Source: Eubacteriales bacterium (GTDB taxonomy: Bacteria > Bacillota > Clostridia > Oscillospirales > CAG-272). Taken from it: a DNA stretch of 64,000 nucleotides. Under the pieces are notes generated by a model, which was not told where the DNA came from, ran no database searches, and saw only the letters and a program-made list of their open reading frames with translations. The translations under genes and the position numbers were made by a program. Positions within the stretch are counted from its first letter, which is position 1, and each line of letters opens with the position of its first letter. Location: the NCBI GenBank assembly GCA_045594705.1, contig JAZNZB010000081.1, positions 2,932-66,931 of the forward strand, given 5' to 3'. Shown one piece after another: positions 21,532 through 63,206 of the stretch.

Positions 21532-21852
21532 TCACTTCCCGTCTCTGCCGCGCATACCGCGTGCACGTCCGGGTGCGGTGGTAGTCGTTTCCTCGGTGGT
21601 CGCTGCAGTGGTATTGTCACCGCTGATGGCGTCACTGACGTCCTCAACCACACTATCCACGCTGTCCATCATACCTCCGCTCGTTTCGTCGGTGGTGGGA
21701 GCTTGCGTGGTCTGCTGTGCGGTCGTATTCTTGGTGGTCTCGCCACTTGTGTTGCTGCCGTCGTCACTCTCAGGACCTACACAGCCAACCAAAGCAGCCG
21801 TGATCAAACCCAGCACCAGCGCAAGAGTCAAAGCTTTACCGGTATATTTCAT
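21532..21852 (-). CDS. Small low-complexity lipoprotein
   Basis: MKYTGKALTLALVLGLITAALVGC lipobox; T/S/D-rich body; RBS GGAGG. Confidence 0.8.
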   Translation of the reverse strand: MKYTGKALTLALVLGLITAALVGCVGPESDDGSNTSGETTKNTTAQQTTQAPTTDETSGGMMDSVDSVVEDVSDAISGDNTTAATTEETTTTAPGRARGMRGRDGK

Positions 21853-22007
21853 TGCAATATTCCTCCGAATTTTTTGGGTCAGCATTATTATGCGCAAATA
21901 AAAAGCAATCCTTACATGGAAGATTCCGCCTTATTGACAAAAATCCGTCATTTATGTATAATAAAAATGAATACAGCGTAATTTTGAATATGCAAAGGAG
22001 GGCTGAG

Positions 22008-22904
22008 ATGAGAGTTCGTGTGTGTTTGGCACTGTTTTTGTCTCTTTTTTTATTGATCACGCCCGCGCATGCGGTACAGGCAAATAACGATTTTGCCCTG
22101 CAGCTTGTGCAGAACAACACTTGCCGGGCAGGTGAATCGGTCGAGCTCTCGCTGGTCTTACCCGAGACTGCGATCGCAGGCGGATTTGTGACGCTGGAAT
22201 ATGACCCGCTTTTATTCAGATTGACCGACGTATTCCTGACACAGGAAAATGACGCGCTGACCTTAACCTATCATAATCAAAATGGCAAGCTCAATCTTTT
22301 GCTGGATGCGGCACAAAACGTGGAGGTCTCGGGGCAGATCGTCACCCTGAAATTTCTGGTCAACGAGGAAATTCAGCCCGGCACGTATCCACTCATCTGT
22401 ACCGTACCCGATCCCGCATCCTTTTATCGGCTTGACGAGAATGGCGACACGCACGCGCTTGACATTTTGGGCTGTGAGGCACAGATCGAGATCAGTGCTC
22501 CCGTGCTTCCCGCCTGCCCCGCACGCTACCTTGCCTGCCAGGAGACTAATCCGGCAGACGGAACCATCAAGGTCCGCCTTTGTGCATTGGTAGACGCAGA
22601 GACCTCACTTTCGCGCGGCTCGTACGGCTTTACCTGTACCGTGACCGACCAAGACGGAACGCGCGAGCTGACGCTTGGCGGCTCTGAGATTTTGACAGAA
22701 ATCGAGGGAGGCGGAAAGCTCTATACCGCGCAAAGCCTTGGCGGCCAGCTCTATACCGCCACGCTGCAGGTCCGTTCCCAAGGAAATGCGCAAATCACAA
22801 TCGCTCCTTTTGTGCGCGTGGACGGGCAGACACTGTACGGCGGTGCTTATACCGTATTTTATCAAAACGGCGTTTACGTGCGGACCGAAACCGGAAATTC
22901 CTGA
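22008..22904 (+). CDS. Secreted protein with an N-terminal cohesin-like beta-sandwich
   Basis: Signal peptide ending AHA; AGESVELSL...GGFVTLEYDP..F...IVTLKF.V pattern typical of cohesin-like domains. Confidence 0.55.
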   Translation: MRVRVCLALFLSLFLLITPAHAVQANNDFALQLVQNNTCRAGESVELSLVLPETAIAGGFVTLEYDPLLFRLTDVFLTQENDALTLTYHNQNGKLNLLLDAAQNVEVSGQIVTLKFLVNEEIQPGTYPLICTVPDPASFYRLDENGDTHALDILGCEAQIEISAPVLPACPARYLACQETNPADGTIKVRLCALVDAETSLSRGSYGFTCTVTDQDGTRELTLGGSEILTEIEGGGKLYTAQSLGGQLYTATLQVRSQGNAQITIAPFVRVDGQTLYGGAYTVFYQNGVYVRTETGNS

Positions 22905-23011: not shown

Positions 23012-23869
23012 ATGAAGAAATTACTGGCTCTGGTTCTTTCCATGCTGCTGGTTGCTTCCTGCTTTGCTATGATGGCTTATGCAGAAGAGGAAACCACTAC
23101 TGCTGCTGAAGAGACCACCGTTGCTGCTGAAGGAGAAGAAACCACCGAAGGCGAAGCTCCCTCCTACTCCAACACCCTGCTCGTTTTCAATGATGACGCA
23201 AAGGATATGAAGATCCTGACCTCTCCCAACGGCATTAACAAGACTTACTTTAAGTCCGAATGGGAAGGCGCAAGACTCAAGATCACCAAGCCCGATGACC
23301 CCTACGTACAGATCACTTGGTCTCAGTACATCAGAAAGGCTGATCTGGAGCAGCTCGACTCCCAGTCCTATCCCTTTGTCGTATTCAAGCTCAAGGTAGT
23401 TGGCTACATTGACGATATCGAGCTCTTCTACTGTGCAGGTGATGTTACCGCTGCTACCGGCGGTTATTCCACCACCACGGATTTCCCCGGCATGTACGAC
23501 GGCTCTGTTGAGTACATCATCTACGACCTGACCGGCGACTGCGAGGGTATTTACAACGTATTCAGATTCGACCCCATGGGCGCAGACGAGGATACCGAGA
23601 TCTATCTGTATGAGATGGCATTCTTCGCAACCGAGGACGAGGCGATCAAGTACGCAGGTCTTGATCAGGTAACCGAGCCCGAAGAGAGCGAGACCGAATC
23701 TGCAGAGGTAACTACCGAGGAAAAGACCGAGGCTCCCACCACCGAGGCTGCTTCCAGACCCGAAAGAGGCGAGAAGGAAGAGGAAAAGGGCTGCGGCGGT
23801 ATCATCAGCGTTGGCGCACTCGTCGCTATGATCTCTCTTGGTGTTGTTTGCATCAAGAAGAAGGACTGA
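23012..23869 (+). CDS. Secreted protein with one CBM-like 'DPY' domain and a C-terminal GC-TM-KKK motif
   Basis: Signal peptide ending AYA, E/T-rich linkers, ends KGCGGIISVGALVAMISLGVVCIKKKD. Confidence 0.8.
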   Translation: MKKLLALVLSMLLVASCFAMMAYAEEETTTAAEETTVAAEGEETTEGEAPSYSNTLLVFNDDAKDMKILTSPNGINKTYFKSEWEGARLKITKPDDPYVQITWSQYIRKADLEQLDSQSYPFVVFKLKVVGYIDDIELFYCAGDVTAATGGYSTTTDFPGMYDGSVEYIIYDLTGDCEGIYNVFRFDPMGADEDTEIYLYEMAFFATEDEAIKYAGLDQVTEPEESETESAEVTTEEKTEAPTTEAASRPERGEKEEEKGCGGIISVGALVAMISLGVVCIKKKD

Positions 23870-23900
23870 TCTTTGTTGATTTGAATTAGTTTTCACATTT

Positions 23901-23934
23901 TGCCCGCATATCCGAACGGATATGCGGGCATTTT
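23901..23934 (+). terminator. Intrinsic terminator
   Basis: TGCCCGCATATCCG-aa-CGGATATGCGGGCA-TTTT. Confidence 0.75.
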
Positions 23935-24072
23935 GTATTGTTTTCTCTGCTTCAATTTGTGCAATGCACCAAAAAATGAGGTGAATGCAAAAAAGTGCCT
24001 TTTTTCCCTTTGCATGCAAAAAGTTTTATTGTATAATATAAATTGAATAAATGTCTGCAGAAGGAGCTTGAT

Positions 24073-26229
24073 ATGAAAAAATCCTTTTACATAAAATATT
24101 TGTTCCGTGCATTTGCGTGTTTGGTGCTTCTCTGTCTTGCATTCGGAATGGGCGTGCATGCCGATTCGGTACGCGAATACGGTGTGACTTTGGACGATCC
24201 CGTAAGCATGACTGCAACAAACGGACCCATCGTGCTCAATGGATACGATCAGGGCACAGAGCCGGAATTGGTGCTGGCGGGTTGGATCAAGACGGACCTT
24301 GTCATGCAACGCTACGAGTACACATTGGACGGCGGGAAAACCTGGATCGAGGTCAAGAACGCAATCAAAGAGCGTCCCGATACCAAGCACTTTTGCCCCA
24401 CAACCTGGAGCACTGCGGGATATCACATTGAAATTGACGTTTCCTCTCTGCCTCGCGGCGCACACGATATATTCGTACGTGGCTATACCGAGTCGGGTGA
24501 CGAGCTGAGCGTGCTTGCCATGCTGGACGTTCTGATCGGAGATGCGGATACCGTTACGACCAATTATCTGAAGGTCAATCTCGATGCCTATGGGGCAAAG
24601 AACGGTGCATTGCCGCTGGCGGCAGGAGAGACACTTTTGCTGGACGCTTACAATTTCAATGAATTCGGACGCACTGAGATCCTCCTTGACAGTGCCGCAT
24701 CGCTGACCTTTGGCTCGCAAGACACTCCTGATCCAAAAAGATTTTCACTGACCGAGACAGCAGCCAAGACCGAGCAGGGCTACCTTGTCACATTTGATCT
24801 TGACAGCGTTTCGTTTGCCGGAGCTGTTCAACTCAGCACGGATGCCGACGTGCAAATTCTGGACATCCTCTTTTATTACAACACACCGGACTATTATACA
24901 GGAGATCTCAAGCTCCATATGACCGCCTTGGCATATGATTATCTGAGCGGTGCAAATTATGCCGACGCCATGCTTCTTGCAGACGATACCGTGGGCACTT
25001 ACACGACTCTTTATCCCACGGGTGACACCAATGACCCCTTTATTTATTTTGAGATCGGCAAGTACTTATCAGATACGCAAGGACGCGTGATCAGCGCAGA
25101 CCATTACCGCTATGCCGTGATCACACTGCAAACACCCGCAACCAACTCAAACGGCCTTTTCCGCCTGTTTTTGTGTGCGGGTGCGATCCGAGGTCCTTCG
25201 GGAGACAGCCACGTTGCATTCCAGCCCATCAACGACGGAAAATGGCGCACGTACGTCATTCCGCTTTTGGAGGAAAACGACTGGACAGGCAAGATCTACG
25301 GGGTCAGACTGGATTTCATAGATGCAAACGCCGTGCCTTCGGACTATGCCAATATTGCCTCGATCGGCCTTTATCCCGATCTTGAAAGTGCACAGGCTGC
25401 AGCCAATGCACCCTTGGAGATTTATCACGAAAACGGTGCTGCACCGAACGATCAATACAAGGAGGAAGGTCGCGCACCCTCGGGCAGAGCTGATGCCATT
25501 ACCTGGTTTGACCAAAGTCTTGCGCCTTGCTTTGGCGGAGAAAATCAAACCTCCATCAGCTTTGATTCATACGGACACGTGATGCTTACGGCCACCGAGG
25601 CCACCAACGACCCCTATATCAGCTTTGATCTGCAAACCTACGCAGCACTGAGCGGCACACAGCCCCTGTCCGCCGATCAGAATCAGGTCATTGTGCTGCG
25701 CGTGCTGGGTGACAAGCGGATCGTCGGAAAAAATTTTATACTCTACTATTATTCCGGCGGTTTCAATTACGCCGAGGGAACACGCACGGCTGCGGCGGAA
25801 TTTCAAGGCGGAAATTGGGAGTATTTGGTTTACGATATGAGCGATAAGCCTTATTGGACAGATCAGATTTTGGGCATGCGACTGGATTTTGCAACACAGA
25901 TCAGTGCCAATCAAAGCGTTTGCCTTTCGGATATTCTGTTCTTTGCGGATATGGAGGACTGGCTTGCATACGCTGCCGAGCACGGAATCAGCACGGGCTC
26001 TACGGTCGATACCGCCGCTCCCGAGACAACCGAGCCCGAAACAGAGCGTCCCTCCATTGAGATTCCTTCAAAGGGCCCGGGGCTGGAATACGTTCCGCCC
26101 GAATCAGAAGAAAACGGAGAAAATCAAGGTTGTAAGAGTCTGATTTCAGGTTACGCATTCTTCCTTCTCTTCCCCGTGTATTTTGTTTTAAGCTACAATA
26201 ATAAATCCAAAAAAGGAGACAGATCATGA
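24073..26229 (+). CDS. Secreted multidomain protein (Ig-like domain plus two 'DPY' domains) with a C-terminal GC-TM-basic motif
   Basis: Signal peptide ending VHA; internal repeat NDP[FY]I.F...W..Y...W...I.G.RLDF; ends GCKSLISGYAFFLLFPVYFVLSYNNKSKK. Confidence 0.8.
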   Translation: MKKSFYIKYLFRAFACLVLLCLAFGMGVHADSVREYGVTLDDPVSMTATNGPIVLNGYDQGTEPELVLAGWIKTDLVMQRYEYTLDGGKTWIEVKNAIKERPDTKHFCPTTWSTAGYHIEIDVSSLPRGAHDIFVRGYTESGDELSVLAMLDVLIGDADTVTTNYLKVNLDAYGAKNGALPLAAGETLLLDAYNFNEFGRTEILLDSAASLTFGSQDTPDPKRFSLTETAAKTEQGYLVTFDLDSVSFAGAVQLSTDADVQILDILFYYNTPDYYTGDLKLHMTALAYDYLSGANYADAMLLADDTVGTYTTLYPTGDTNDPFIYFEIGKYLSDTQGRVISADHYRYAVITLQTPATNSNGLFRLFLCAGAIRGPSGDSHVAFQPINDGKWRTYVIPLLEENDWTGKIYGVRLDFIDANAVPSDYANIASIGLYPDLESAQAAANAPLEIYHENGAAPNDQYKEEGRAPSGRADAITWFDQSLAPCFGGENQTSISFDSYGHVMLTATEATNDPYISFDLQTYAALSGTQPLSADQNQVIVLRVLGDKRIVGKNFILYYYSGGFNYAEGTRTAAAEFQGGNWEYLVYDMSDKPYWTDQILGMRLDFATQISANQSVCLSDILFFADMEDWLAYAAEHGISTGSTVDTAAPETTEPETERPSIEIPSKGPGLEYVPPESEENGENQGCKSLISGYAFFLLFPVYFVLSYNNKSKKGDRS

Positions 26230-28691
26230 AACGTATGCTCAGAATTTTGGTATGTCTGACGCTTTGCCTTGCTCTGGCAATGCCTTTGACACTCGTGACC
26301 TATGCCGAGGAATCGACCTCTGCCGTCGGTACACTTGAGGGTGAGGTTGGCAGAGAGAGTGAAGAGATCACGCTTGCCGACGGAACCAAAACCGGCGTCA
26401 CGGTTGAAACCATCACACTGGACGGCACGTACGGCAAAAAAGAGGTCGTTGTGGCAACGGCCAACCTTGCAAACACCAATCTTTCCGTTGAGGTCCTGAA
26501 CTGCGGTGATTACATGGTCTCCGCCACCACGATGATCAAGTCGGCAGAAAAATACAATGCCGAGCACGAGGGTCAGACCGTGCTGGCTGCCGTGAACGGT
26601 GACCTTTGGATGACTTCCGTGCACAGTAACTCTGCAGTCACCACCAAGGTACTCAAGGTACCGCGCGGCTTTACCATGATCGACGGTGAGATCTGGGCAA
26701 CCCAGCAGATCGGTATGGAAAACTACGTGGCAACCAACGGCGAAAAGGGTACGACCAGCCCCGATAAGGCGGCCTTTGGTATCACCTCATCCAATCAGCC
26801 TCTGGTGGGTACTCCCGTCGTGGACATCACGGTCAAGAACGAGAGTAAGGATTTCTCCACCACGGCCGACGGCATCAACCGTCTGCCCGCATGGAACTCT
26901 CTGATCGTTTACAATTACCGTTGCAATGACACCAACTATGCCCTTTCCGACTCTTACGAGATTGAGATCGAGGTCGAATCCTCTGCCTTTACGCTGAACG
27001 GCAAGGTCAGCGGTACGGTTAAAGCCATTTACCCCGCAGATTCCTCTACCCGTCCGACCTTTGGCAAAAATTCCGTGGTGCTGACCGCGCGCGGCTCGGC
27101 ACAAAGCAAGCTCAAGGATCATTTTTCGGTTGGCGATACCGTTTCCTTTGATCTGACTCTGACCGACAAGCTTGGCAACACCGAGCTCTGGCAGACCGTA
27201 CAGGATGCCATCGGCGGCCACATGATCGTGCTTAACGACGGTAAGATCCACACCGCCAACGGTGACGGCTCGGAATACCCTACCACCTTGATTGGCTATA
27301 AGCAGGACGGCACTGTCATGATGCTGACCGTCAACTCCCAGACCGCAGGCAAATATGCGGGTCTGAAATTCTCTCAGGGCATCAAATTCTGCTCCGAGCT
27401 TGGCTATAACAGCGTATTTTACATGGACGGCGGCGGTTCAGCCACCTTTGTGACCATGGAAGAGGGCGAGAGCGGCACAACCTACATAGCAAGAAATAAC
27501 TGTGCCGACCCGATCAAGGACGATGCAGGCAACGTCATCGGCGGCACACCCAGAAGCGTCATCAACGGCGTGGGCTTTGTCTGGAACACCACTCCCGTAT
27601 GCGACGCGCAGGGCTCGCTGGATTACATCGAGTATCCCCTCTTTGACTACAGTCAGATCTCCTGCGAGTACGTTTGCGGTGAGCTGATGGCAGAATTCAT
27701 GGGCGGCCACAACGCCGTGGACACCTATTACGACAAGGAGCAGGGCGGCCTTGTCATCGAGCTGAACGCCAACAGCAACGACCCCTACGCAGCCTTTGAT
27801 ATGACCTCGCTTTCCCAGGTCAACGCAGATGAATACAAATACATCGTCTTATGCGCAAAGACCAACAGAGACAGCGTCAATACCAGTACCTCGGCCATCT
27901 TCTACGCTTGCGGCAATACCATGGGTGCTGTGGGCGGTCAGACCGTTCGGTATGAGATCCCCAAGGGTGACGAATGGAGCTACCACATCATTGATATGAG
28001 CAAAAAGCCCGGCTGGTCGGGTAAGATCAACAACCTGCGCTTTGACATTTTTGACGGCCCAACCGTACAAAAAGGTTTGAGCGTTACCTTCTCTATGATC
28101 GCCTTTGCAAAAACCGCGGAGGATGCACAAAAGCTGACCGAGGGCTACGTACCCGAGGGATGCATTGCCGATTTCGGTGCTTTCAAGCAGACCCTGCTTG
28201 ACGTACTCGATGCGAAAAAGCAAGTGAGCGCGCTCCTTTCCGACGCGCAAGCAGCTGCGAGCGATGCATCTGCCGCACTGACTGCCGTACAGGACATTGC
28301 GGCAAAGAATGAGCAGACGACCGTGCTCTACCAAGAGGCAGAGGCACTGTTGGCAAAGGTCAACGGCTCGCTGGAGTCGCTCAAAGCCACCAATGCTTCG
28401 ATTCAGGCACTCAAGGATGAGACCGATGAAGCAGCCTCCTTGGTTGAGCAAGCAAAAGCAACACTGACCGCTCTGCAGGCGGACGCATCCGCACTGACAG
28501 ACAAGATTGCTGAGCTTGTGACAGCAAGCGAACAGACCGAAGCTCCCCAGACCACCGAGCCGGGGACCCAAGCTCCCGAAACCGAGACGGAGGCCGAGAA
28601 ATCCACGGGCTGCAAGAGCATCATGCTTGCAGGCTCTACCCTGCTCTTGCTTGCAGGCTGCGCTTTGGTTTTGAAAAAAAAGCGTGATTGA
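26226..28691 (+). CDS. Phosphodiester glycosidase (NAGPA/DUF2233) family secreted protein with a 'DPY' domain, helical stalk and GC-TM-KKKR tail
   Basis: AAVNGD, P.T.IG, MDGGGSAT and PRSVING motifs. Confidence 0.82.
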   Translation: MKRMLRILVCLTLCLALAMPLTLVTYAEESTSAVGTLEGEVGRESEEITLADGTKTGVTVETITLDGTYGKKEVVVATANLANTNLSVEVLNCGDYMVSATTMIKSAEKYNAEHEGQTVLAAVNGDLWMTSVHSNSAVTTKVLKVPRGFTMIDGEIWATQQIGMENYVATNGEKGTTSPDKAAFGITSSNQPLVGTPVVDITVKNESKDFSTTADGINRLPAWNSLIVYNYRCNDTNYALSDSYEIEIEVESSAFTLNGKVSGTVKAIYPADSSTRPTFGKNSVVLTARGSAQSKLKDHFSVGDTVSFDLTLTDKLGNTELWQTVQDAIGGHMIVLNDGKIHTANGDGSEYPTTLIGYKQDGTVMMLTVNSQTAGKYAGLKFSQGIKFCSELGYNSVFYMDGGGSATFVTMEEGESGTTYIARNNCADPIKDDAGNVIGGTPRSVINGVGFVWNTTPVCDAQGSLDYIEYPLFDYSQISCEYVCGELMAEFMGGHNAVDTYYDKEQGGLVIELNANSNDPYAAFDMTSLSQVNADEYKYIVLCAKTNRDSVNTSTSAIFYACGNTMGAVGGQTVRYEIPKGDEWSYHIIDMSKKPGWSGKINNLRFDIFDGPTVQKGLSVTFSMIAFAKTAEDAQKLTEGYVPEGCIADFGAFKQTLLDVLDAKKQVSALLSDAQAAASDASAALTAVQDIAAKNEQTTVLYQEAEALLAKVNGSLESLKATNASIQALKDETDEAASLVEQAKATLTALQADASALTDKIAELVTASEQTEAPQTTEPGTQAPETETEAEKSTGCKSIMLAGSTLLLLAGCALVLKKKRD

Positions 28692-39103: not shown

Positions 39104-40492
39104 ATGGAAATACTGGATCTGCTTAACGCACTCTGGGACGGAATCAAGGAATACTATCGAGACACGCTCGGAGACCTGATCTGCGACGTCTGGTTCGGTG
39201 GCTTGGAAATTCAAAGCTTTGAAAATAATACCATTGTCATGGTGACACCGTCCGAGATCAAAATCAACGTGATCAAAAGTAAATATCTGCCTGAAATCAA
39301 ACAAAAGTTTTCGGAAAATCTCGGAATGGACGTAAACGTGGAGCTGCGCTTTTCGGGAGACACCAAGGGAATGGAATCCTTGCGTGACCGTTTTGTGCGT
39401 GCTGCGCAAAATGAGGTAAGCACACCGGCAGCCGAGCAGCCTGCTCAGAAGCCTACTCTCGGCTCGACCATGCCTCCCTTCAAATTTGAATACACCTTTG
39501 ATAATTTCATCGTCGGAAACTCCAACAAGTTTGCACACGCTGCCTGTGTAGCTGTGGCAAACCATCCTGCAACCGACTATAATCCGCTCTTTATATACGG
39601 CCCTTCGGGTATCGGTAAAACGCACTTGCTCTACGCCATTACCAATGAGTTCAAGCGCAAGCGTCCCGATATCAAGGTCATTTACATCAAGAGTGAGGAC
39701 TTTACCAATCAGATGATCGACTGTATGGCCCGCCGCAATATGAACGAATTCCGCGAGAAATACCGCAGCTGCGATATTCTTATGATCGACGATATTCAGT
39801 TCATCGCAGGTAAGGTTTCCACGCAAGAGGAATTTTTCCACACCTTCAACGCTCTGCACGAGGACGGCAAGCAGATCATTCTGACCTCGGACAAGCCTCC
39901 CAGAGAGATCAAGACCTTGGAGGACAGACTGATCACGAGATTTGAATGGGGACTGATCGCAGACATTCAGCCGCCGGATCACGAGCTGCGCATGGCCATT
40001 ATCAAAAAGAAGGCCGATCAGGTAGGCATTGAAATTTCGGACGAGGTGCTGGAATTTCTTGCAGAAAACCTGCGCTCCAATATCCGACAGATCGAGGGCG
40101 CTGTGCGAAAGCTGAGTGCGATCGGATTTGTGTACGGCAAGGTGATCACCATGGACGTGGCCCGTGGCTGCATTGACGAGCTGCTTGGCGGCGCTGAGCC
40201 GGTAAACGTGACAGTGGACAAGATCTTTACCGCAGTTTATAAAAAATACGGCATCAAGAAAGAAGAGATTCTGGGTGAGCGCCGTACCAAGGATATTGCT
40301 CAGGCAAGACACATTGCCATCTACCTGATCCGCAACATTACCGACATGTCCTTCCCCGGCATCGGTAAGATCCTCAATCGCAACCACACCACCGTTATCT
40401 CCTCGATCGACACTGTGGAAAAGAAGATGATGGCTTCCACCTCCTTCTCTCTTGAAATCGATGAGCTGATCAAGGCTGTGAAGGAAAGTTAA
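39104..40492 (+). CDS. dnaA: Chromosomal replication initiator DnaA
   Basis: YNPLFIYGPSGIGKTHLL, IDDIQF, RFEWGL, HTTVI. Confidence 0.98.
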   Translation: MEILDLLNALWDGIKEYYRDTLGDLICDVWFGGLEIQSFENNTIVMVTPSEIKINVIKSKYLPEIKQKFSENLGMDVNVELRFSGDTKGMESLRDRFVRAAQNEVSTPAAEQPAQKPTLGSTMPPFKFEYTFDNFIVGNSNKFAHAACVAVANHPATDYNPLFIYGPSGIGKTHLLYAITNEFKRKRPDIKVIYIKSEDFTNQMIDCMARRNMNEFREKYRSCDILMIDDIQFIAGKVSTQEEFFHTFNALHEDGKQIILTSDKPPREIKTLEDRLITRFEWGLIADIQPPDHELRMAIIKKKADQVGIEISDEVLEFLAENLRSNIRQIEGAVRKLSAIGFVYGKVITMDVARGCIDELLGGAEPVNVTVDKIFTAVYKKYGIKKEEILGERRTKDIAQARHIAIYLIRNITDMSFPGIGKILNRNHTTVISSIDTVEKKMMASTSFSLEIDELIKAVKES

Positions 40493-40810
40493 GTCAGAAT
40501 TGTGGAAAACTCACGCATTTTTTTCCACAGCGACACATATGTCGTACCAAAAATGCGAAACACCGGATTTTTGACAACTCAGAAATTGACTTTTCCACAT
40601 TTTATCCCTTGTCTCCAAACAGGCTTTTGCCAAGAAATTTACGGCAAAATTCTAAAAAAAATTCTTGCACTGCAAGGCAAAAATGACTTTTCCACATTTT
40701 GCACAGAAACTATTATTAAAACTACTGAATATTATTATCTCTCTATCTCTCTCGCGTGCACGCGAGATGCAATCAGATCAGCGAGATACACAAAAAAAAG
40801 GAGTGCTGTT
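40493..40810. other. Replication origin oriC (DnaA boxes plus DnaA-trio unwinding element)
   Basis: TTTTCCACA boxes at 40501 (reverse), 40521, 40591, 40688, tandem TTTTGCACA at 40697, then AT-rich trio-like run ACTATTATTAAAACTACTGAATATTATTAT; between dnaA and dnaN. Confidence 0.85.
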
Positions 40811-41947
40811 ATGAAAATCGTATTCAACCGCCAGGAAATCTGCAACGCCGTTGCACCTCTGATGTGCGCTGTATCCGGCAAATCTACGCTGACTGCCGTG
40901 GAGGGCATTCTGTTTGAAGCAAAAGAGGACAATACCTGCGTGCTGACCACGTTTGACCTTGAAAAGGGCGTTCGTATTGTGATCAATGCCGACGTTGAAG
41001 AGCCCGGCTGCTATATCATCAACGCACAGAAGTTTGTGCAGACCATTCGTGTCATGGAAGGTGAGACCGTAACTCTGACCGTCAACGAAAAGCTGGGCGC
41101 AGAGATCGTTTCCGCCAATTCTTCCCATAAAATGAACGCGCTTGCGGGTGCGGATTTTCCCGAGATTCCCAAGCTGACCTCGCAAAATACCTTTACGCTC
41201 AAGCAGAGCGTGCTCAAGGAAATGCTTTCCAAGGTCATGTACGCCATGGGCGTCAACGACCAGCGTCCCGTACTCAACGGTACACACTTCCGCATTACCG
41301 ACAACGTGCTCTACTTAGTATCCTGTGACTCCTTCAAGCTGGCAAAGTGCAATGTGACCACCGAGATCGAATCACAGGGCACGTCCGACTTCTCCTTCAT
41401 CATTCCCTGCAAAACGGTAAACGAGCTTTACAGAATGCTGGATAACGACGAGGAAGCAACCGTGACCGTTTACACCAGCCGTAAGAATATCGTGTTTGAT
41501 CTGGACAGCATGATCTTCTTCTCCCGTCTGATCGACGGCGATTATATTGATTATAACCGCATCATTATCACCACGCACCGTATCTCGGTTTGCGTGGACA
41601 GATCCGTTCTGATCGGTGCTCTGGAGCGCGCAGCACTTGTTACCGAGGAAAGAATTGCGGGCAGCGTGCGCTCTCACGTCAAGCTGACCGTGGCCGGTGA
41701 TTATCTCAAGATCTCGGCAACCTCTACCGCAGGCTCTACTTACGAGGAGCTTTACGTGGAGCACGAGGGCGACGATCTGGTCATTGCCTTCAATAACCGC
41801 TATCTGATCGACTCCTTGCGTGCCTGCACGGCAGACAGAATCAAGCTGAGCATGACCTCTCCCCTGTCCAGCATCAATATCGAGCCCGTAGAGCAGAGCG
41901 AGGACAAGGAGCTGTTTTTGTTGCTGCCTGTTCGTATGAAGGACTAA
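40811..41947 (+). CDS. dnaN: DNA polymerase III beta clamp
   Basis: RPVLNG, CDSFKLA, FFSRLIDG, IAFNNRYL, LLLPVR; ATG at 40811 after AGGAG. Confidence 0.96.
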   Translation: MKIVFNRQEICNAVAPLMCAVSGKSTLTAVEGILFEAKEDNTCVLTTFDLEKGVRIVINADVEEPGCYIINAQKFVQTIRVMEGETVTLTVNEKLGAEIVSANSSHKMNALAGADFPEIPKLTSQNTFTLKQSVLKEMLSKVMYAMGVNDQRPVLNGTHFRITDNVLYLVSCDSFKLAKCNVTTEIESQGTSDFSFIIPCKTVNELYRMLDNDEEATVTVYTSRKNIVFDLDSMIFFSRLIDGDYIDYNRIIITTHRISVCVDRSVLIGALERAALVTEERIAGSVRSHVKLTVAGDYLKISATSTAGSTYEELYVEHEGDDLVIAFNNRYLIDSLRACTADRIKLSMTSPLSSINIEPVEQSEDKELFLLLPVRMKD

Positions 41948-41954
41948 GACACTT

Positions 41955-43067
41955 ATGCAATGCAATCGCATAGAGGTCACCGATTTCCGTAATATCGAGC
42001 ATGCAGAGGTAGCATTCGACGGCGGAGTCAACGTGCTTGTGGGCGACAATGCCCAGGGAAAGACCAATTTGCTTGAAGCCATTTATCTCTGTGCGCTGGG
42101 AAAGACCTTTCGCGCAGCGAAGGATACTGAGCTTGTGCGATTCGGCCGTGAGGAATGCAGCATTGTGCAGCATTTTTCCGACAGTGCAAGAGAGCAGGTC
42201 ATTGAAATGCAGCTTGGTACCAAGGCGCGCAGGCGTGTGTATCATAACGGTGTCAGCCTTGCGCGTACCAGTCAACTGCTCGGAAATTTCCGCGTCGTAC
42301 TCTTTTGCCCCGAGCACCTCTCCTTGGTCAAGGACGGACCTGCCGAGAGACGCAATTTTTTAGACGTGGCCATCTCGCAGCTGCACCCCGCCTATATCCG
42401 CTCACTGCAGAAATACAATCAGCTGCTCAAGCAAAGAAACAGCCTCTTAAAGCTTGCCGAAACAGACCGCAAGACCTTTGACGATACGGTGGAGCTGTGG
42501 AGCGCGCAGCTGGCGCATGAGGCAGCATATATTGCGTCGGTCAGATACGAATACGTCAAAAAGCTCAACGTACACGTGGGTGAATTTTTCACCGGAATGT
42601 CGGGCGAGCGCGAGTCGGTATGCGTCAGATATATGGGTAAGGCGCACGTGGAAGAGGATATGTATGCGGACAAGGAATATTGCGAGCGTGCTTATATGAA
42701 TCTTTATATGTCGCACCACGACCGAGAAATTGCCGCAGGAAGCACTTTGTGGGGCATTCACAGAGATGACCTCGAAATTGAGCTTAACGGCAAATACGCG
42801 CGAATTTTTGCCTCTCAGGGGCAACAAAGATCGATCGCTCTTGCCATGAAAATGGCAGAGGGCGAAATTTCCCGGGAAAATTGCGGACAGGAATATCCCG
42901 TATTCTTGTTTGATGACGTGCTTTCCGAGCTGGATGCCGGACGCCGCGCTTACCTGCTTGGTGAGATCCGTGACCGTCAGGTGATCATGACCTCATGCGA
43001 GAGTGATCTTGTGGGCGCAAAGAATACCGTTTACGTGAAGCAAGGTACTTACGAAAGAAGAAATTAA
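41955..43067 (+). CDS. recF: DNA replication/repair protein RecF
   Basis: GDNAQGKTNLLEAI, SQGQQRS, DDVLSELD. Confidence 0.97.
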   Translation: MQCNRIEVTDFRNIEHAEVAFDGGVNVLVGDNAQGKTNLLEAIYLCALGKTFRAAKDTELVRFGREECSIVQHFSDSAREQVIEMQLGTKARRRVYHNGVSLARTSQLLGNFRVVLFCPEHLSLVKDGPAERRNFLDVAISQLHPAYIRSLQKYNQLLKQRNSLLKLAETDRKTFDDTVELWSAQLAHEAAYIASVRYEYVKKLNVHVGEFFTGMSGERESVCVRYMGKAHVEEDMYADKEYCERAYMNLYMSHHDREIAAGSTLWGIHRDDLEIELNGKYARIFASQGQQRSIALAMKMAEGEISRENCGQEYPVFLFDDVLSELDAGRRAYLLGEIRDRQVIMTSCESDLVGAKNTVYVKQGTYERRN

Positions 43068-43072
43068 ATATT

Positions 43073-43333
43073 ATGTTTTTACACGTTGGAAACAACAAAA
43101 ATATCCGAAGCCGTGATATCATCGGCATTTTTGATACAGATAACGCCACACTTTCTGCTGTGACAAGACAGTATCTGAGCCGTGCGGAGAAGCAAGGACT
43201 TGTGGATTCGGCGCGCGAGGAGATCCCGAAATCCTTTGTGCTTTATCGCACCAAGGACGGTTGCAAGATCTGTTTTTCTCAGCTTTCGGCAACCGCACTC
43301 TCCGGCAGAATGAGCGACCCGTCCAGCTTATAA
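43073..43333 (+). CDS. remB: DUF370/RemB (YaaB)-family protein
   Basis: MFLHVG...IIGIFD...PKSFV...SQLS; between recF and gyrB. Confidence 0.85.
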   Translation: MFLHVGNNKNIRSRDIIGIFDTDNATLSAVTRQYLSRAEKQGLVDSAREEIPKSFVLYRTKDGCKICFSQLSATALSGRMSDPSSL

Positions 43334-43338
43334 ATTGA

Positions 43339-45344
<2,006 letters not shown>

Positions 45345-45345
<1 letters not shown>

Positions 45346-46331
45346 TGCAAGAAAATTTACAACGCATGATCCCGGGCAAGCCCATGGGGCGAGTATTGGC
45401 GCTTTGCCTGCATCCCGCACTGGACGTCACGGTTCATACCGGCCACGGACGCGAAATTATGCGTTATGAGCACCTTGGCGGAAAGGCGATCAATCTTGCC
45501 CGCATGCTGCACGCTTTGGGTGCAGAGGTCATTTTAATTGCCCCGAATGACCGCGAAGGACGGACAGGCTCTTTGCTGGGAGAATGCGGCTTTGATTGCG
45601 AGCTTGTTGACACCGATCTCTCACTGCGTCAGAATGACAAGTACGTTGACGCAGACGGATCGATGCGCGAGCAAAACGGCAGCGCGGGAACACTTTCTCC
45701 ACAGCAATTTCAACAGCTTTTAAACAGAGTTATGCACATTTGTCGTACACGACAAATTTCGCACCTTGCCCTGTGCGGAAGTTTTCCACAGGGTGTGGAA
45801 AAGGCTGTTTATAAGTCTTTGATTCATGCAGCAAATGCGCTGAATATTTCTTGTGTGACAGATGCATCGGGTGACCCCCTTTCCCTTGCAATACAAGCAA
45901 AACCGCTGCTGATCAAACCGAATTTACAGGAATTTTCTTTGTTTACATCGCAAGATATTTCCATGTTGAAAACTTCCGATCAGCTCGAAAAAGCAATTTT
46001 TGAGGCATATTGTGACACAGGTGTGCAAATTCTTTGCTCCATGGACAAAAACGGCTCGATCTATGCGGGACCCGAAGGTATTTTTACGGTTAAGAGCCCT
46101 GTGGTCGAGCAAGTCTGTTCCTTTGCGGGCGCGGGAGACACCATGCTTGCAAGCTTTATCTATGCAAGGTTTTTGTGCTGTGCAGATATTGAGGACAGCC
46201 TGCGCTTTGCTTCGGCTGCTGCAACCGCAAAGGTGAAATTGCCGGCAAATATACTGCCGAATGATGATCAGATCTATACCGAATGGATCAAAACAGAGAT
46301 TAGCCGTTCGGCTAAGAAAGGCGGAGCATGA
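45345..46331 (+). CDS. PfkB-family carbohydrate kinase (1-phosphofructokinase-like, divergent)
   Basis: GGKAINLAR, IKPN..E, GAGD motifs; ATG overlaps the gyrB stop. Confidence 0.82.
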
Positions 46332-47733: not shown

Positions 47734-47747
47734 GAAGGTACAAAAAA

Positions 47748-50542: not shown

Positions 50543-53056
50543 TTACTGAGCTGCGGGATAATCAACCCACTCTACAACGTACTGGGAAACGCCAACGTTA
50601 GCAGCGTTATCACCGGTGATGTAGTAGGTGCTGGAGCAGCCAATGGTGGTGAAATCATTGTAGGTGCCCAGATAATAGTTGGTTTCCTCAAAGTTGATAA
50701 CGTAGGTGTTAGCCTCTTCGTCAAATACATAGTAGAACTGGGGATCAGTGGTCAGGCAAACGCGAACCTTGTTACTGTCGTTCTTGTGGATCTCGATGTA
50801 GTTCTTAACGCCGTCAACCAGAACGTACTGTCTCAGACCGTTCTCGGAAGTCTCAACGTAAACCTTTGCAGCAGCAGCTGCGTCGGTGGAGGTAGCGAGG
50901 TAATCGCCAGCCATTTCGCCGGTGAAGTACAGGGTCTCGCCGGTCTTAGCCTGAACCATCTGGAGAGCGTAGAAGGGATCCTCAGCGGGAGCTTCGGGTT
51001 CTTCCTCAACGATGCCGTAGTAAGCGTTAGCGGAAACAACGGTATCGAACAGGATGATCTCAGCGATGTCGATGGAGCCTGCAGAGCCAGCGAAGAAGTC
51101 GTAACGCAGGTAGTTAACCTTGCCTGCAGCATTCAGATAAGAAGCGATGTCGAGAACGATAACGTGCCATTCGCCGTCATTGATGTACTCGAACTTTACT
51201 TCGTCAGCGCCGCCAGTGATAGAGCCGGAGCCTACGAAGAACTCGCCGTCGAATTCCTCACCGCCGTCAACGGTGGTGCGGTACTTCAGAGTGATAGCGC
51301 CAACGCCTTCGATGTTAGCGCCGCCGGTCAGTACCCAGAAGTAGGGGTCGCCGCCGGGGGTGGTGATGGTAACGTAGCTGCCATCCTCGCTCAGAACTGC
51401 GGATTCAATGTTGTTGTTGCCAATACCGCCATTGTTAGCCTGGCCTGCAAGGTATTCAGCATTACCTTCAGCTACGGGAGGCTTGGGCTCTGCGGGGGGA
51501 GTTACGACTACGGGAACAGCAAGCTTAACGGAAGAACCGTAAGTGCCTTCCTTGAGTGTGCCTGCTACGTAGGTCTCTACGCCGGGAACCAGAATTTCGT
51601 CAGCAGCCCAACCGGTGAACTGTGCGGAACCGGTCAGGTACTCGATTTCGTAGTAAACGTCGCCGGTGATCAGCTTTTCAAAGGGAATTTCAACAACAAA
51701 GCTGGTGTTGTCGGGATGGTTCTCGCCGGTCAGCTCGAACAGAACAGTACCTGCAACGGTGGTTTCATAGTCAGTGTTCCAAGCCCAAACCTTGAAGGAC
51801 CAGGTGTTGACGTTGCCGTCAGCGTAGGTAGCCATATCCTTAACGGTTACGCCGGTCAGGTAGTTGTTGCCGAGGGGCAGCTTCTGACCGAACTTCTTTT
51901 CGCCGCTGTAGGGGCCGCCGGAAGTACGGATACCGAGATCAACGGTAGCTTCGTTGCACTCGGGAACGATCTGGAGATAGAAGGAGTAGAACTGAGCATA
52001 GGTGCCGTCTTCGAGCTTAGCGATAACGCCTACGGGATATACGCCTGCGGGAAGGTCAGCGATGGAAACGGTCATGTTGTAGCCAGAGCCGTTTACAATA
52101 CCTGCAGTTGCCAGGTCAGGACGGTCCTGAGCGTAAGCAGCGTCGGTAATGATCTCAACCTGCTTGCCAATGTAATAACCGTACTCAACAGCGGGAGCTG
52201 CAGCAAATGCTGCCCAACCTCTCATGCCGATGGATTCCTTAGCATCGGTGGGCATAACAACAACGGTGTTGTTCTTAGCCTGCATCTCTGCAACAACACT
52301 GCCCTCGGTAACGTATGCGTTGCCGTTCAAGGATACGTTATCGATAGAGAAGTTAGAATGAGCGTTTTCAACGTAAGGCATGGTCTTGGTAACCTTGAAT
52401 TCCTTGATAACTTCTTCGTTACCGTTGGGATCCTTAGCAACCAGAGCGAAGGTGTATTCGCCTGCCTTGAGATCAGCAGTGGGAATGTCGAACTTCATTC
52501 TGCATGCGGACAGAGCGCCGGGAACGTTGTTCTTGATGTGAGTCTGAACGCCTTCCTCAGCGGTGAAGGTGAATGCTTCGTTGTAGATAACGTCGCCGCC
52601 GTTGATGGAGTAACCAACGGTGCCTTCGGTCTCAGTTGCGTATGCGATCCAACCCCAAACGCGCAGAGCCTCGGTGGTGTGGTCGATGTCAACAACTGCA
52701 TTGGTTTCCCAAGTCAAGTAAGCGGTGCCATCGCCGAAAACAGCGTCAGCTTCATAACCGTCAACAACCTTGTACATGGAGTCCCAAGACTTCGCGATGA
52801 CAACCTTAACGGGGTCAACGGTGGGTTGGGTGCTGTCTTCGGGAGTGGTCTCCTCGGGAGTCGTAGCCTCAGGAGTGGTCTCTTCGGGAGTGGTAGCTTC
52901 GGGAGTGGTCTCTTCGGGCGTGGTAGCCTCGGGAGTGGTCACTTCGGGAGTGGTCACTTCGGGAGTGGTTTCTTCGGGATTGTCATTGTTGTTGCAAGCA
53001 ACCAGAACAACCGAGAGAACCATGCAAAGTGCCAGAATAACGAGTAACTTTTTCAT
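50543..53056 (-). CDS. Large modular surface lipoprotein A (PExTT linker, two Ig-like domains, one 'DPY' domain)
   Basis: Lipobox LVAC; beta-rich acidic body; strong preference for TAC/AAC/TTC/GCT codons suggests high expression. Confidence 0.85.
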   Translation of the reverse strand: MKKLLVILALCMVLSVVLVACNNNDNPEETTPEVTTPEVTTPEATTPEETTPEATTPEETTPEATTPEETTPEDSTQPTVDPVKVVIAKSWDSMYKVVDGYEADAVFGDGTAYLTWETNAVVDIDHTTEALRVWGWIAYATETEGTVGYSINGGDVIYNEAFTFTAEEGVQTHIKNNVPGALSACRMKFDIPTADLKAGEYTFALVAKDPNGNEEVIKEFKVTKTMPYVENAHSNFSIDNVSLNGNAYVTEGSVVAEMQAKNNTVVVMPTDAKESIGMRGWAAFAAAPAVEYGYYIGKQVEIITDAAYAQDRPDLATAGIVNGSGYNMTVSIADLPAGVYPVGVIAKLEDGTYAQFYSFYLQIVPECNEATVDLGIRTSGGPYSGEKKFGQKLPLGNNYLTGVTVKDMATYADGNVNTWSFKVWAWNTDYETTVAGTVLFELTGENHPDNTSFVVEIPFEKLITGDVYYEIEYLTGSAQFTGWAADEILVPGVETYVAGTLKEGTYGSSVKLAVPVVVTPPAEPKPPVAEGNAEYLAGQANNGGIGNNNIESAVLSEDGSYVTITTPGGDPYFWVLTGGANIEGVGAITLKYRTTVDGGEEFDGEFFVGSGSITGGADEVKFEYINDGEWHVIVLDIASYLNAAGKVNYLRYDFFAGSAGSIDIAEIILFDTVVSANAYYGIVEEEPEAPAEDPFYALQMVQAKTGETLYFTGEMAGDYLATSTDAAAAAKVYVETSENGLRQYVLVDGVKNYIEIHKNDSNKVRVCLTTDPQFYYVFDEEANTYVINFEETNYYLGTYNDFTTIGCSSTYYITGDNAANVGVSQYVVEWVDYPAAQ
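52844..52978 (-). repeat. Nine tandem 15-bp units encoding PE[EVA]TT
   Basis: Direct reading of the sequence. Confidence 0.95.
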
Positions 53057-53311: not shown

Positions 53312-55552
53312 TTAAGCCTTGGTAATGTTCAGAACGATGGTTACGTTGCCGTTACCGCCCTCGATTGCCATTACGTCGTCAACGCCAACGTTCAGGGTCA
53401 GGGTATCGCCTGCAGCCAATTCTACGGTCCAAGGAGTGGAGAAGCCCTCATCCTTTTCTACGCACCAGATGAATGCAGCATCGCCGCCGAAGGTGTAAGT
53501 GCCGGCCTCGGTAGCAGTGAAGGTAACGTCAGTACCTGCGCAGTAGTAGTTCTCAACAGTAACTTCTACGGTGTTCTCGCCCATAACGAGACCGGAGGTC
53601 TCAATAGCGGGAGCCTCGAAGGAGATAGCAACCTCAGCAGCCTCAGCGTTGTTGTTTACGATGGTCAGCTCGAAGGAATCCCAATCAGCGGGAATTTCGA
53701 TTACGATCTTACCGTCAACAGCAGTCAGAGTAGCGGGATCGCCTGCGAAGTTGGTAGCAGTGATGGTGAACTTGTCAGCGTTTGCAATGGTCATGGTCAT
53801 GCCTGCAGCGCCGCCACGTACGAAGAACTTGGTTTCGAAGTTTGCGGGAACGGAGAAGGTGCCGTTTTCGCCGTTGTAGTAAACAGTCTCAACAACGGGA
53901 GCAACGGTAACATTAGCCAGCTCGCAGATAACAATTACAGAGTTCTGGTTCAGCTCGGGGATAGCACCGATCATCACGTTGCCCTGTGCGCCTGCGGGGA
54001 AGATGGAGAGGTCAATGGTGATCTCAGCACCGCTATTGAACAAACCGTTCTTGGTGGAGGTCATGCCCTCTTCGGTGTTCAGGCTGTTGTAGTAGCCCTC
54101 GAGAGGCTCGCCGTCCTTACCGCCGGAAACAACTTCCATCCAGTTTACACCGTCGATGGACCAAACGTAACGGTTTACACCGCCGGGAACGCCGCACCAA
54201 CCGCCAAAGGTCAGCAGGCCGTTCTTATCGTTGGTCTTGTGGTCAACTGCAGCGTCGATCTTACCGGTGGAAACACCGCCAACACCTGCATAGTTAGTTG
54301 CCCAATCGCCGGTTTCAGCGTTGTAGGGGCCCTTGCCGTTTACGAAGTCGATGGATACCATGAAGTTGGTGTTAGCATCTACAGTCAGGTTGATCTTGTT
54401 GAGAACGATCTCATACAGCTTTACAATGGTGCCGTCTTCCAGCTTAGCATAGATGCTTACGCTGTGCTCGCCGTAAGGAAGCTCATAGGTGGGAACGGTG
54501 ATGTTGAAGCCACAACCGTTCTTGATGCCTGCAGCCTCAAGGTCGGGTCTATCCTGCTTGAATTCGCCGAATACAACGTTACCGGTAGTGCCGGTGATGT
54601 AGTAACCGAAAGCGGTTACGTTCTGCTGGAAGGAGGTCCAGCCGCGGAAGCCGATGTTGTAGCACTCAGTGCCGTAGTTGATGGGAACGATCTTGTCCTG
54701 AGCTTCGAGCTTGCCGGCAGCATTGCCGTCCTCTGCGAAGTACAGGTTGTCGTTGAGGTAGAAGCCGTCGAAGGACCAGCTAATGAAGCCGGCAGCAGCA
54801 TCGGTGGTGTTTACGCAAAGCTTATCCATAAAGTAGATAGCAGCATACTCAGCAGTGTTGTAGAAGCCGATGTAAGCAAGGTCAAGAGCACCTTCGGTCG
54901 CGCCTCTGAAGGGGTCAAGACGGAAGTAGCCAACGTTGCCGTCGGTGATGTTGGTAGAAGAGCAGTTAGCAAGGTCAACTACCAGGAGGTTCCAGTTGCC
55001 ATCATTGTTCCAATCCAGAACAACGTGGTCGTTAGTACCGTTAGGACCATTGGAGGTACCGATGAACATCTCTGCATCGAGCTCAGCGGTGGTTCTGTAA
55101 ACGAATGCCAAGTACTGAGGTACTACGCCGATGTTAGAACCAACAGTGAACTGGGGGTCACCGGAGTTAACGGTGATGCGAGCGAACTCAAAACCGTCTT
55201 CGGTTACAACCTCTGCGCCTGCAATGCCTGCGCCTGCAGTAGCAATACCTGCCAGATCAGCTGCGCCTGCAAAGAATACGGGATCAGCGGGGTCGGGCTC
55301 GGGCTCGGTGGTTTCTTCGGGAGTGGTTTCCTCGGGAGTGGTCTCCTCGGGAGTCGTAGCCTCAGGAGTGGTCTCCTCAGGAGTGGTAGCCTCGGGAGTG
55401 GTCTCCTCGGGAGTAGTCTCCTCGGGAGTGGTCACTTCGGGAGTGGTCACTTCGGGAGTGGTTTCTTCGGGATCGTTGGTGTTGTCTTTACAAGCAACCA
55501 GAACAACCGAGAGAACCATGCAAAGTGCCAGAATAACGAGTAACTTTTTCAT
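53312..55552 (-). CDS. Large modular surface lipoprotein B (paralogue of A with a different domain order)
   Basis: Same signal peptide MKKLLVILALCMVLSVVLVAC; 'DPQ' domain, then Ig-like domains. Confidence 0.85.
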   Translation of the reverse strand: MKKLLVILALCMVLSVVLVACKDNTNDPEETTPEVTTPEVTTPEETTPEETTPEATTPEETTPEATTPEETTPEETTPEETTEPEPDPADPVFFAGAADLAGIATAGAGIAGAEVVTEDGFEFARITVNSGDPQFTVGSNIGVVPQYLAFVYRTTAELDAEMFIGTSNGPNGTNDHVVLDWNNDGNWNLLVVDLANCSSTNITDGNVGYFRLDPFRGATEGALDLAYIGFYNTAEYAAIYFMDKLCVNTTDAAAGFISWSFDGFYLNDNLYFAEDGNAAGKLEAQDKIVPINYGTECYNIGFRGWTSFQQNVTAFGYYITGTTGNVVFGEFKQDRPDLEAAGIKNGCGFNITVPTYELPYGEHSVSIYAKLEDGTIVKLYEIVLNKINLTVDANTNFMVSIDFVNGKGPYNAETGDWATNYAGVGGVSTGKIDAAVDHKTNDKNGLLTFGGWCGVPGGVNRYVWSIDGVNWMEVVSGGKDGEPLEGYYNSLNTEEGMTSTKNGLFNSGAEITIDLSIFPAGAQGNVMIGAIPELNQNSVIVICELANVTVAPVVETVYYNGENGTFSVPANFETKFFVRGGAAGMTMTIANADKFTITATNFAGDPATLTAVDGKIVIEIPADWDSFELTIVNNNAEAAEVAISFEAPAIETSGLVMGENTVEVTVENYYCAGTDVTFTATEAGTYTFGGDAAFIWCVEKDEGFSTPWTVELAAGDTLTLNVGVDDVMAIEGGNGNVTIVLNITKA
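55307..55471 (-). repeat. Eleven tandem 15-bp units encoding PE[EVA]TT
   Basis: Direct reading of the sequence. Confidence 0.95.
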
Positions 55553-62266: not shown

Positions 62267-62288
62267 GATATTTCTCCGTTATTTTGTG

Positions 62289-63188: not shown

Positions 63189-63206
63189 TTTTTTTAATAC
63201 CTCCTA

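Follow-up and report, generated by a model that had tools for sequence, protein, structure and literature searches.

A portable Cys-type C-terminal sorting signal in Clostridia, associated with a CPBP protease and a divergent Lgt paralogue

Three consecutive genes for secreted proteins lie at positions 23,012 to 28,691 of a 64,000-nucleotide stretch of contig JAZNZB010000081.1 (assembly GCA_045594705.1, Eubacteriales bacterium; the whole stretch is hereafter called the window). Each ends in the same type of tail, in which an E/T/P-rich linker leads to G-C, a hydrophobic stretch of about 17 residues and finally a Lys cluster. We found that this tail is a portable C-terminal sorting signal, carried by 31 secreted proteins of the genome, and that it occurs together with a particular CPBP protease and, in most cases, with a divergent Lgt paralogue (Lgt2) encoded beside the protease. 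The CPBP protease is very likely the partner of the signal. As a whole, the components probably make up a monoderm myxosortase-like system, in which the Cys would receive an S-diacylglyceryl group from a transferase of the system's own, Lgt2, before the tail is cleaved.

The genome of the window (2.53 Mb, 95.5% complete; labelled G000) was searched throughout with a pattern scan and a profile. The common tail, consisting of an acidic linker, G-C, a membrane helix and a Lys cluster, was found on 31 secreted proteins from 19 contigs. Profile scores within the genome dropped from 27.6 to 11.0 bits at the boundary of this set, the profile having been trained on the same 31 tails. As an independent check, a profile of 82 tails from other genomes was run against 11,735 full-length open reading frames (ORFs), and its top 28 matches were 28 of the 31 substrates. 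Twenty-seven of these matches finished within 4 residues of the C-terminus, and the remaining one was partial and stopped 14 residues short. The second gene of the window was among the three substrates missed. The Cys was invariant in all 31 tails, preceded by G in 27, S in 3 and T in 1, and the 30 residues before the motif comprised 24% E, 20% T and 13% P. All substrates showed the hydrophobic helix, the basic cluster and an N-terminal signal peptide, as judged by pattern and by eye, the start of the substrate on contig C95 being unclear. Forty-four proteins of the genome combine a signal peptide with a single C-terminal helix and a basic end, and 29 of them are substrates. The substrates formed 14 homology components, with similarity outside the tail in 35 of 465 pairs. 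Their domains were diverse (GH106-like, CHAP, F5/8, GLUG, Ig-like, NAGPA and laminin G), and 19 of the 28 substrates outside the window had no Pfam match. Tail numbers were similar in the rest of the genus, with 22-35 in each of 15 genomes.

Conservation points to the Cys as the residue of the tail under selection. Across 101 tails the Cys alone was invariant; Gly was present in at least 90%, and there were strong preferences at positions +1 (G/K) and +2 (S/G). A count in which 99 of 99 tails had the Cys was not used, since the profile itself rewards Cys. Whole-protein searches with gene 1 returned 90 homologues, of which 87 had the tail and three lacked it. The Cys was kept in 87 of 87, the residue before it being G/S/K in 81 and D/N in 6 (by eye). 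Orthologues of gene 2 were found in all 15 genomes of the genus and in G019, and 15 of these 16 had the Cys tail. The other (L384, G015:C24) lacks the tail and, by deletion or misassembly, continues into what in the window is the small downstream ORF after gene 3.

A search of 1.84 billion representatives gave 1,234 50%-identity representatives matching the tail at E≤0.001. Among the top 150 matches, 149 lay within 6 residues of the C-terminus, and all 149 had G-C or S-C. In NCBIfam (June 2026) the three full-length window proteins had no sorting-signal match, and the 31 tails gave weak, mixed matches only, with no sorting-signal model fitting them. The preliminary description of the window, made from its sequence alone, had suggested that such tails be counted across the genome. 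They proved not to be confined to the paralogues that it described, their Cys is conserved in homologues, and no existing family model covers them.

Two further observations concern tails in other genomes. In family f89 (L264, L265; genomes G530 and G686) the strongest tail was on one giant protein of about 2,500 residues per genome, which suggests a near-dedicated version of the system. In another Clostridia family (L358, L360, L361; G406, G433) several proteins carried a tail of sortase-like type without Cys, made up of V-E-E-T-G or the like, then a helix and K-K-R/K-E-F.

The distribution of the tail coincided closely with that of two membrane enzymes. Tails were found in 18 of 40 relatives (15 of 15 in the genus, 3 of 9 in other genera of the family and 0 of 16 in other families), and orthologues of Lgt2 (E≤1.2e-54) and CPBP (E≤4.4e-43) lay side by side in exactly the same 18. 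In the 22 tail-negative relatives the best matches were 2.4e-24 (Lgt2) and 3.1e-9 (CPBP). For 300 order-level genomes, the presence of CPBP and Lgt2 was predicted from the tails before the enzymes were searched for. Six of these genomes had 4-8 tails, one of them (G176) belonging to another family. CPBP was found in the same six only (E≤1.3e-64, next 8.3e-19), and Lgt2 in the same six at 316 bits or more (next 179 bits, in G184, which has no tails), adjoining CPBP in each. Among 400 class-level genomes (one not scored), CPBP was present in four others (206-373 bits, next 97), and all four had Cys tails (about 18, about 26, 1 and 2). In the reverse search, over 237 of the 400, the two that have CPBP were the only genomes with Cys tails. 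No tails were found in the 250 other genomes of a phylum-level sample. The system is patchy within Clostridia: tails are scattered within family f1 and recur in five other families, always with CPBP. Single weak tail matches in G155, G179 and G258 covered only the helix part of the profile, and weak matches in G406, G433, G484 and G509 were found on inspection to lack the Cys; all seven genomes were counted as negative. Phylogenetic profiling for a membrane enzyme, which the preliminary description had also suggested, thus gave the CPBP protease and the Lgt paralogue. Both are encoded on contig C67, in keeping with its statement that no sorting enzyme was visible in the window.

The two enzyme genes are also physically linked. 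CPBP loci were counted for the best 80 of 225 relatives, 11 of them close kin, and record titles indicate that the hosts are nearly all uncultured gut or digester Clostridia known from metagenome-assembled genomes (MAGs). The lgt2 gene was directly upstream of CPBP in 71 of the 80 loci, and a tail gene was present in 18, often immediately before lgt2. Of the nine loci without lgt2, two were at a contig edge and seven were unlinked. Five of these seven were tested: G324, G325 and G327 carried an Lgt2-clade gene elsewhere, together with tails, G323 had tails and no Lgt2, and G326 had neither. Unlinked lgt2 genes, which occur elsewhere in the genomes G324, G325, G327 and G530, belong to the same clade. 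A search among longer proteins recovered two gap-free Lgt2-CPBP fusions, from NCBI and ENA assemblies (P0121 and P0122, 536 and 539 residues), with Lgt2 at residues 1-260 and CPBP at 265-528. They are 73% identical and therefore probably derive from one fusion event. An apparent fusion in G019 (one 575-residue frame) was rejected as evidence, as it spans a 100-N assembly gap.

Five CPBP proteases and four Lgt-family genes, one of the latter canonical (C43), were identified in the genome. On contig C67 ftsK is followed by Lgt2 and, immediately downstream, by CPBP, the last two in overlapping reading frames. The CPBP protein matched PF02517 (59.4 bits, cut-off 22.4). Its family kept EExxFRG, H174 and H218 in 56 of 56 aligned rows, with motif 4 in the form H-x-x-x-D/N, and at E≤1e-10 it had 1,585 homologous 90% clusters, not all of them orthologues. 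Lgt2 matched PF01790 (100 bits, cut-off 24.9) and scored below the equivalog model of canonical Lgt, TIGR00544 (77.2 bits against a cut-off of 118.9; 167.3 for the C43 paralogue). Its signature reads G-R-x-G-C-x-x-x-G-C-C, whereas canonical Lgt has G-R-L-G-N-F-I-N-G-E. The structural model of Lgt2 (predicted local distance difference test 89.9) had Lgt 5azb as its sole significant PDB match (Foldseek E 3.3e-7, TM 0.57-0.60). In a quick tree of 73 Lgt rows, 34 formed the Lgt2 clade (SH-like approximate likelihood ratio support 98), and every tested genome in the clade had tails and CPBP. Judged by their motifs, both enzymes look active. The C67 CPBP appears to have been recruited separately from the myxosortases, since it scores far under the myxosortase models despite its kept catalytic motifs. 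No sortase (PF04203), exosortase or rhomboid was found in the 95.5% complete genome. The first candidate considered, a CPBP on contig C52 that adjoins a substrate, was rejected, as near-full-length homologues occurred in five of five tail-negative genomes; the C13 CPBP had only weak matches in those five. Scores with the Lgt2 profile were 339 bits for the C67 protein, 71 for the Lgt paralogue on C74 and 22 for that on C70.

In the mechanism that we propose, a substrate would be exported by Sec and its N-terminal signal peptide removed by signal peptidase I, a step that follows from the sequences and established knowledge. The tail helix would stop transfer, its Lys cluster remaining on the inner side, and would hold the exported protein in the membrane. 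Lgt2 would then move diacylglyceryl from phosphatidylglycerol onto the invariant Cys on the outer side. The CPBP, an Rce1-like protease coupled to Lgt2, would cut just after the lipidated Cys, so that the protein would stay on the cell surface by its C-terminal lipid, on a flexible linker. For the lipid, the sequence of events, the site of the cut and retention at the surface, the proposal draws on analogy with MYXO-CTERM/MrtX and Rce1.

Several observations weigh against this proposal. Tails and CPBP were found without an Lgt2-clade gene in G459 (94% complete), in its relative G323 and in G686 (100% complete); Lgt2 is therefore not strictly required. The best Lgt of G459 and of G323, both with many tails, scored 101-108 bits and fell outside the Lgt2 clade in the quick tree, as did the best Lgt of G686, which has two Cys tails. 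Each of the three keeps another G-C-C-type Lgt. Such paralogues are common without tails (most of the 56 genomes with a weak match among 301), and in G326, a genome of unknown completeness, a CPBP of about 200 bits was accompanied by no detected tail or Lgt2. Positive genomes are also not independent, being often close kin: 15 of the first 18 were from one genus, and about six families account for all positive lineages. Profiles built from these lineages could miss divergent tails. There is partial circularity in A4, which holds a row (L169) from the same genome as G265 or a very close one, in A5, which holds a row of G323, and in A6, which includes tails of G459 and G530. Free of this are A2 (CPBP, order-level search), the 5-row Lgt2 profile (order-level adjacency) and A1 (tail searches at order and class level).

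The residues of Lgt2 likewise give a mixed picture. In E. coli Lgt, Y26, H103, R143, N146, G154 and R239 are required (PMC13251419). Equivalents of Y26, R143, G154, R239, E243 and R246 were kept in 55 of 55 Lgt2 rows, and two of the essential residues differ, N146 being replaced by Cys (55 of 55) and H103 by Y/L/F, which again counts against the proposed activity. Firmicutes Lgt normally has Y at the H103 position, and N146C is natural in the partly active Lgt of Leptospira and in a second Lgt of M. smegmatis of presumed low activity (PMC13251419). In Lgt2 the equivalent of E151 is Cys, and an extra His is invariant four residues before the catalytic Arg (R143); it may, as a speculation, stand in for H103. 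Lipid binding by Lgt has been placed at R143 and R239 (PMC4728403). As these two are kept and other residues are changed, the lipid-donor site of Lgt2 is predicted to be kept and its peptide side to differ, a pattern compatible with a different acceptor though no proof of one.

The signal and the CPBP could be cognate with the lipid coming from elsewhere, whether from the housekeeping Lgt, any G-C-C-type Lgt or an S-acyl transferase, and Lgt2 would then be a helper or one of several interchangeable enzymes. This accords with the three tail-positive genomes that lack the Lgt2 clade and with the N146C replacement. In addition, MrtX processes TraA in E. coli, where canonical Lgt is the only one, so a dedicated transferase may not be needed (PMC11980579). 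We nevertheless regard this alternative as rather unlikely, given that lgt2 is immediately 5′ of CPBP in 71 of the 80 counted loci and fused to it in two proteins, that it is absent from the tail-negative genomes tested, and that unlinked copies still occur in the genome and clade. The link of the tail with CPBP is firmer than that with Lgt2, because some tail genomes have no Lgt2-clade gene, G-C-C-type Lgts are widespread without tails and MrtX works in E. coli. A less probable alternative again is that the tail stays in place as a membrane anchor and the Cys alone is modified, by a lipid or a disulfide. The CPBP would then serve Lgt2 as a scaffold or partner and not as a protease, a role like that proposed for LnsB in Staphylococcus. 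Lipoprotein acylation requires LnsB, a protein of the CPBP fold, speculatively in a non-catalytic role (PMC7387801), uncleaved MYXO-CTERM proteins reach the surface in part (PMC11980579), and the C67 CPBP lies outside the myxosortase clade. However, LnsB has lost the CPBP catalytic motifs (PMC7387801), whereas the C67 family keeps EExxFRG and both His in every aligned row, and signals known to be cleaved have this same layout, in which an invariant Cys precedes a short helix of poor conservation. We consider it very improbable that the tail is simply a membrane anchor without modification, which recombination has spread in a few lineages, and that its association with the gene pair reflects merely shared ancestry. 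The narrow distribution and the close kinship of many positives would agree with this. Yet among homologues recovered by similarity over the whole protein the Cys was kept in 87 of 87 and in 15 of 15 while its neighbour varied (G, S, D, N), the tail is patchy in family f1 and recurs in five other families with CPBP each time, and a tail gene lies in 18 of the 80 pair loci. For the signal, with CPBP and Lgt2 as its probable enzymes, lipidation followed by cleavage remains the reading that we favour.

Within the window (Table 1), the preliminary description had reported three adjacent ORFs with motif-helix-basic tails and no LPxTG; the sequences agree, with the Gly of G-C exactly at 23789, 26128 and 28608, and the E/T/P-rich linker that it noted is borne out by the composition given above. 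All three signal peptides are present, and its statement that they lack an obvious lipobox needs one small correction: that of gene 1 contains a lipobox-like V-A-S-C. Signal peptidase I cleavage is probably likelier here than lipobox use, because V-A-S-C precedes further hydrophobic residues and an A-x-A site. A loose lipobox pattern matched 80 of 89 gene 1 homologues starting M-K/R, and the Cys in question was lost in several. The common C-terminal layout was present in all three genes, but the tail of gene 2 is the least typical of the set and is missed by the other-genome profile; it extends to ...KKGDRS because the ribosome-binding site (RBS) and start of gene 3 overlap the end of gene 2. 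The gene 1 tail scored 30.5 bits with that profile. Searches of Pfam and NCBIfam with substrate 1 gave no significant family. Substrate 3 has a phosphodiester glycosidase domain (NAGPA, PF09992) at 27174-27494 (62.9 bits, cut-off 25), and weak SMC/coiled-coil matches suggest that its stalk is coiled-coil-like.

A domain of about 150 residues, of no Pfam family, was present in all three substrates. A profile built from its copies on the tail proteins matched 28 proteins of the genome, of which 12 had the tail, 11 a lipobox by pattern (14 by eye) and 2 were unclear. Both lipobox proteins at 50.5-55.5 kb, with which the preliminary description had said the passenger domains were shared, were matched by it. 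Many tail clients have lipobox homologues within the genome. Since the domain is found on tail proteins and lipobox proteins, both anchors carry the same cargo. The earlier interpretation is supported, and its lipidation and cleavage are likewise suggested by analogy.

Table 1. Features of the window and the two candidate enzymes on contig C67 of the same genome.
Feature	Position	Strand	Description
Substrate 1	23012..23869	+	285 amino acids; signal peptide, T/E-rich linker, one shared domain of ~150 amino acids (nt 23204-23659), acidic linker, Cys tail
Sorting signal of substrate 1	23789..23866	+	G-C, membrane helix, KKKD; Cys codon 23792-23794
Substrate 2	24073..26229	+	718 amino acids from ATG with RBS; alternative TTG at 24043 gives 728; signal peptide, N-terminal region of no known family, two shared-domain copies (nt 24928-25404, 25519-25974), Cys tail
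Sorting signal of substrate 2	26128..26226	+	Cys codon 26131-26133; end contains RBS of gene 3 (ATGA overlap)
Substrate 3	26226..28691	+	821 amino acids; signal peptide, NAGPA domain, shared domain (nt 27684-28142), coiled-coil-like stalk, Cys tail
Sorting signal of substrate 3	28608..28688	+	Cys codon 28611-28613; 33.5 bits with other-genome profile
Lipobox lipoprotein (L-V-A-C)	50543..53056	-	Shared domain nt 51017-51415, E 1.7e-9; comparison case, not a substrate
Lipobox lipoprotein	53312..55552	-	Partial shared-domain match nt 54839-55060, E 3e-5; comparison case
Lgt2	G000:C67:7307-8221	-	Divergent Lgt paralogue; outside the window
CPBP protease	G000:C67:6481-7362	-	Rce1-like; outside the window

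A secreted cohesin-domain protein (21852-22904, + strand; PF00963, 27 bits, cut-off 24.1) is encoded immediately 5′ of the three tail genes and has no tail itself. Translation showed 39104-50423 and 60986-63968 to be the replication origin region, with dnaA, dnaN, recF, gyrB, gyrA, parA/parB-like genes and serS; gyrA and gyrB were identified by family search and the other genes by eye. Elsewhere in the genome, contig C70 (L035:3069-5538, - strand) has a run of a type IV pilin-like N-methylation protein, a G-C-C-type Lgt paralogue and a Pyr4-like transmembrane terpene cyclase (PF25129, 45 bits, cut-off 27), 3′ of an integrase-like gene (by eye); a terpene cyclase fold beside an Lgt is an unusual pairing. 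On contig C74 (L036:3999-6100, + strand) a second pilin-like gene is followed by a divergent Lgt paralogue. The G-C-C-type Lgts may serve several dedicated substrates. On contig C103 (L005:151-1561, - strand) a CPBP gene overlaps a downstream ORF of 247 amino acids without a Pfam match. By eye this ORF recalls permuted papain-like proteins, and the pair would presumably resemble LnsA/LnsB.

Our literature search found no account of the tail or of an Lgt2-CPBP system, most subscription papers and bioRxiv supplements being outside its coverage. By co-occurrence, gene coupling and fusion, a clade of Lgt is tied to a Cys-type signal, and the question becomes one of three-gene reconstitution. Lgt2 is a candidate for the lipid-adding enzyme of Cys-type tails. 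We judge as evenly balanced the wider proposal that the G-C-C-type Lgts include a dedicated “reverse Lgt” for a Cys in inverted orientation, which with the separately recruited CPBP would complete a mirror-image lipoprotein pathway in monoderm gut Clostridia and supply the class of enzyme that all Cys-type C-terminal sorting systems still lack. Surface proteins diacylglycerylated at the C-terminus would be the class of products of this pathway. The proposed system would widen the reach of Lgt chemistry to include a substrate of inverted topology, bring myxosortase-like sorting to monoderm Bacillota through a CPBP from outside the Mrt clade, and account for the display of about 30 large surface enzymes and adhesin-like proteins by sortase-less gut Clostridia. 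An annotation model is also provided, both for the CPBP family and for the signal, which at least 1,234 protein clusters carry.

The closest known counterpart is MYXO-CTERM (TIGR03901/TIGR03382) with MrtX in Myxococcota, in which the tail is likewise tripartite, the Cys is invariant with no spacer between it and the helix, the clients are unrelated and number dozens in each genome, and the cognate enzyme is a CPBP glutamic protease (bioRxiv 10.1101/2023.06.07.544157; PMC11980579). MrtX cleaves MYXO-CTERM in a Cys-dependent manner; the acyl-transferase is there called unidentified, with Lgt as the authors' leading candidate (PMC11980579). The main text of bioRxiv 10.1101/2023.06.07.544157, in the part available, does not mention Clostridia, Firmicutes, Bacillota or Lgt. 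Unlike the Myxococcota, the Clostridial host is monoderm, no type II secretion step is expected, and the tail has a Lys rather than an Arg cluster and a single Cys. Only 2 of the 31 tails matched TIGR03382, weakly (best E 0.015), and the hosts are Clostridia MAGs. The C67 CPBP scored 17.1 bits on Mrt_core (cut-off 100), below an unrelated paralogue, and lies outside the Mrt clade models (NF040914, NF033192, NF040589, NF040590). The Lgt paralogue, linked and sometimes fused here, has no reported equivalent in the available text of the Myxococcota papers. The system, known here from its genes, would thus work like MYXO-CTERM/myxosortase and falls outside it in tail model, host and enzyme clade.

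Synerg-CTERM/MrtS, JDVT-CTERM/MrtJ and CGP-CTERM/MrtA share a Gly/Ser-rich motif whose last residue is a single Cys directly against the helix, and enzyme and client genes are sometimes adjacent for JDVT-CTERM/MrtJ. In contrast, the Clostridial helix has no invariant Pro or D-P, and the phyla differ. Synergist_CTERM matched 4 of the 31 tails (best E 0.0075), and the C67 CPBP scored 24.6 bits against MrtJ (cut-off 75), with no MrtS or MrtA match at E≤0.01. The LPxTG/NPXTG sortase signals have the same motif-helix-basic layout, and Rumino_NPXTG (NF033846) matched 12 of the 31 tails weakly (best E 0.00032), presumably through the helix and Lys cluster. However, the Cys tail has neither the pentapeptide motif nor a spacer, and no sortase was found in the genome. 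The N-terminal lipoprotein route (lipobox, Lgt and LspA) is similar in having a Cys at the outer end of a helix, a small residue before it, an Lgt-fold enzyme and, in this genome, the same passenger domains. It differs in that the direction of the chain is inverted, the helix following the Cys in the tail, and in that CPBP takes the place of LspA. The proposed route would be a mirror image of the N-terminal Lgt/LspA route, and the same genome also keeps the Lgt of the latter (C43).

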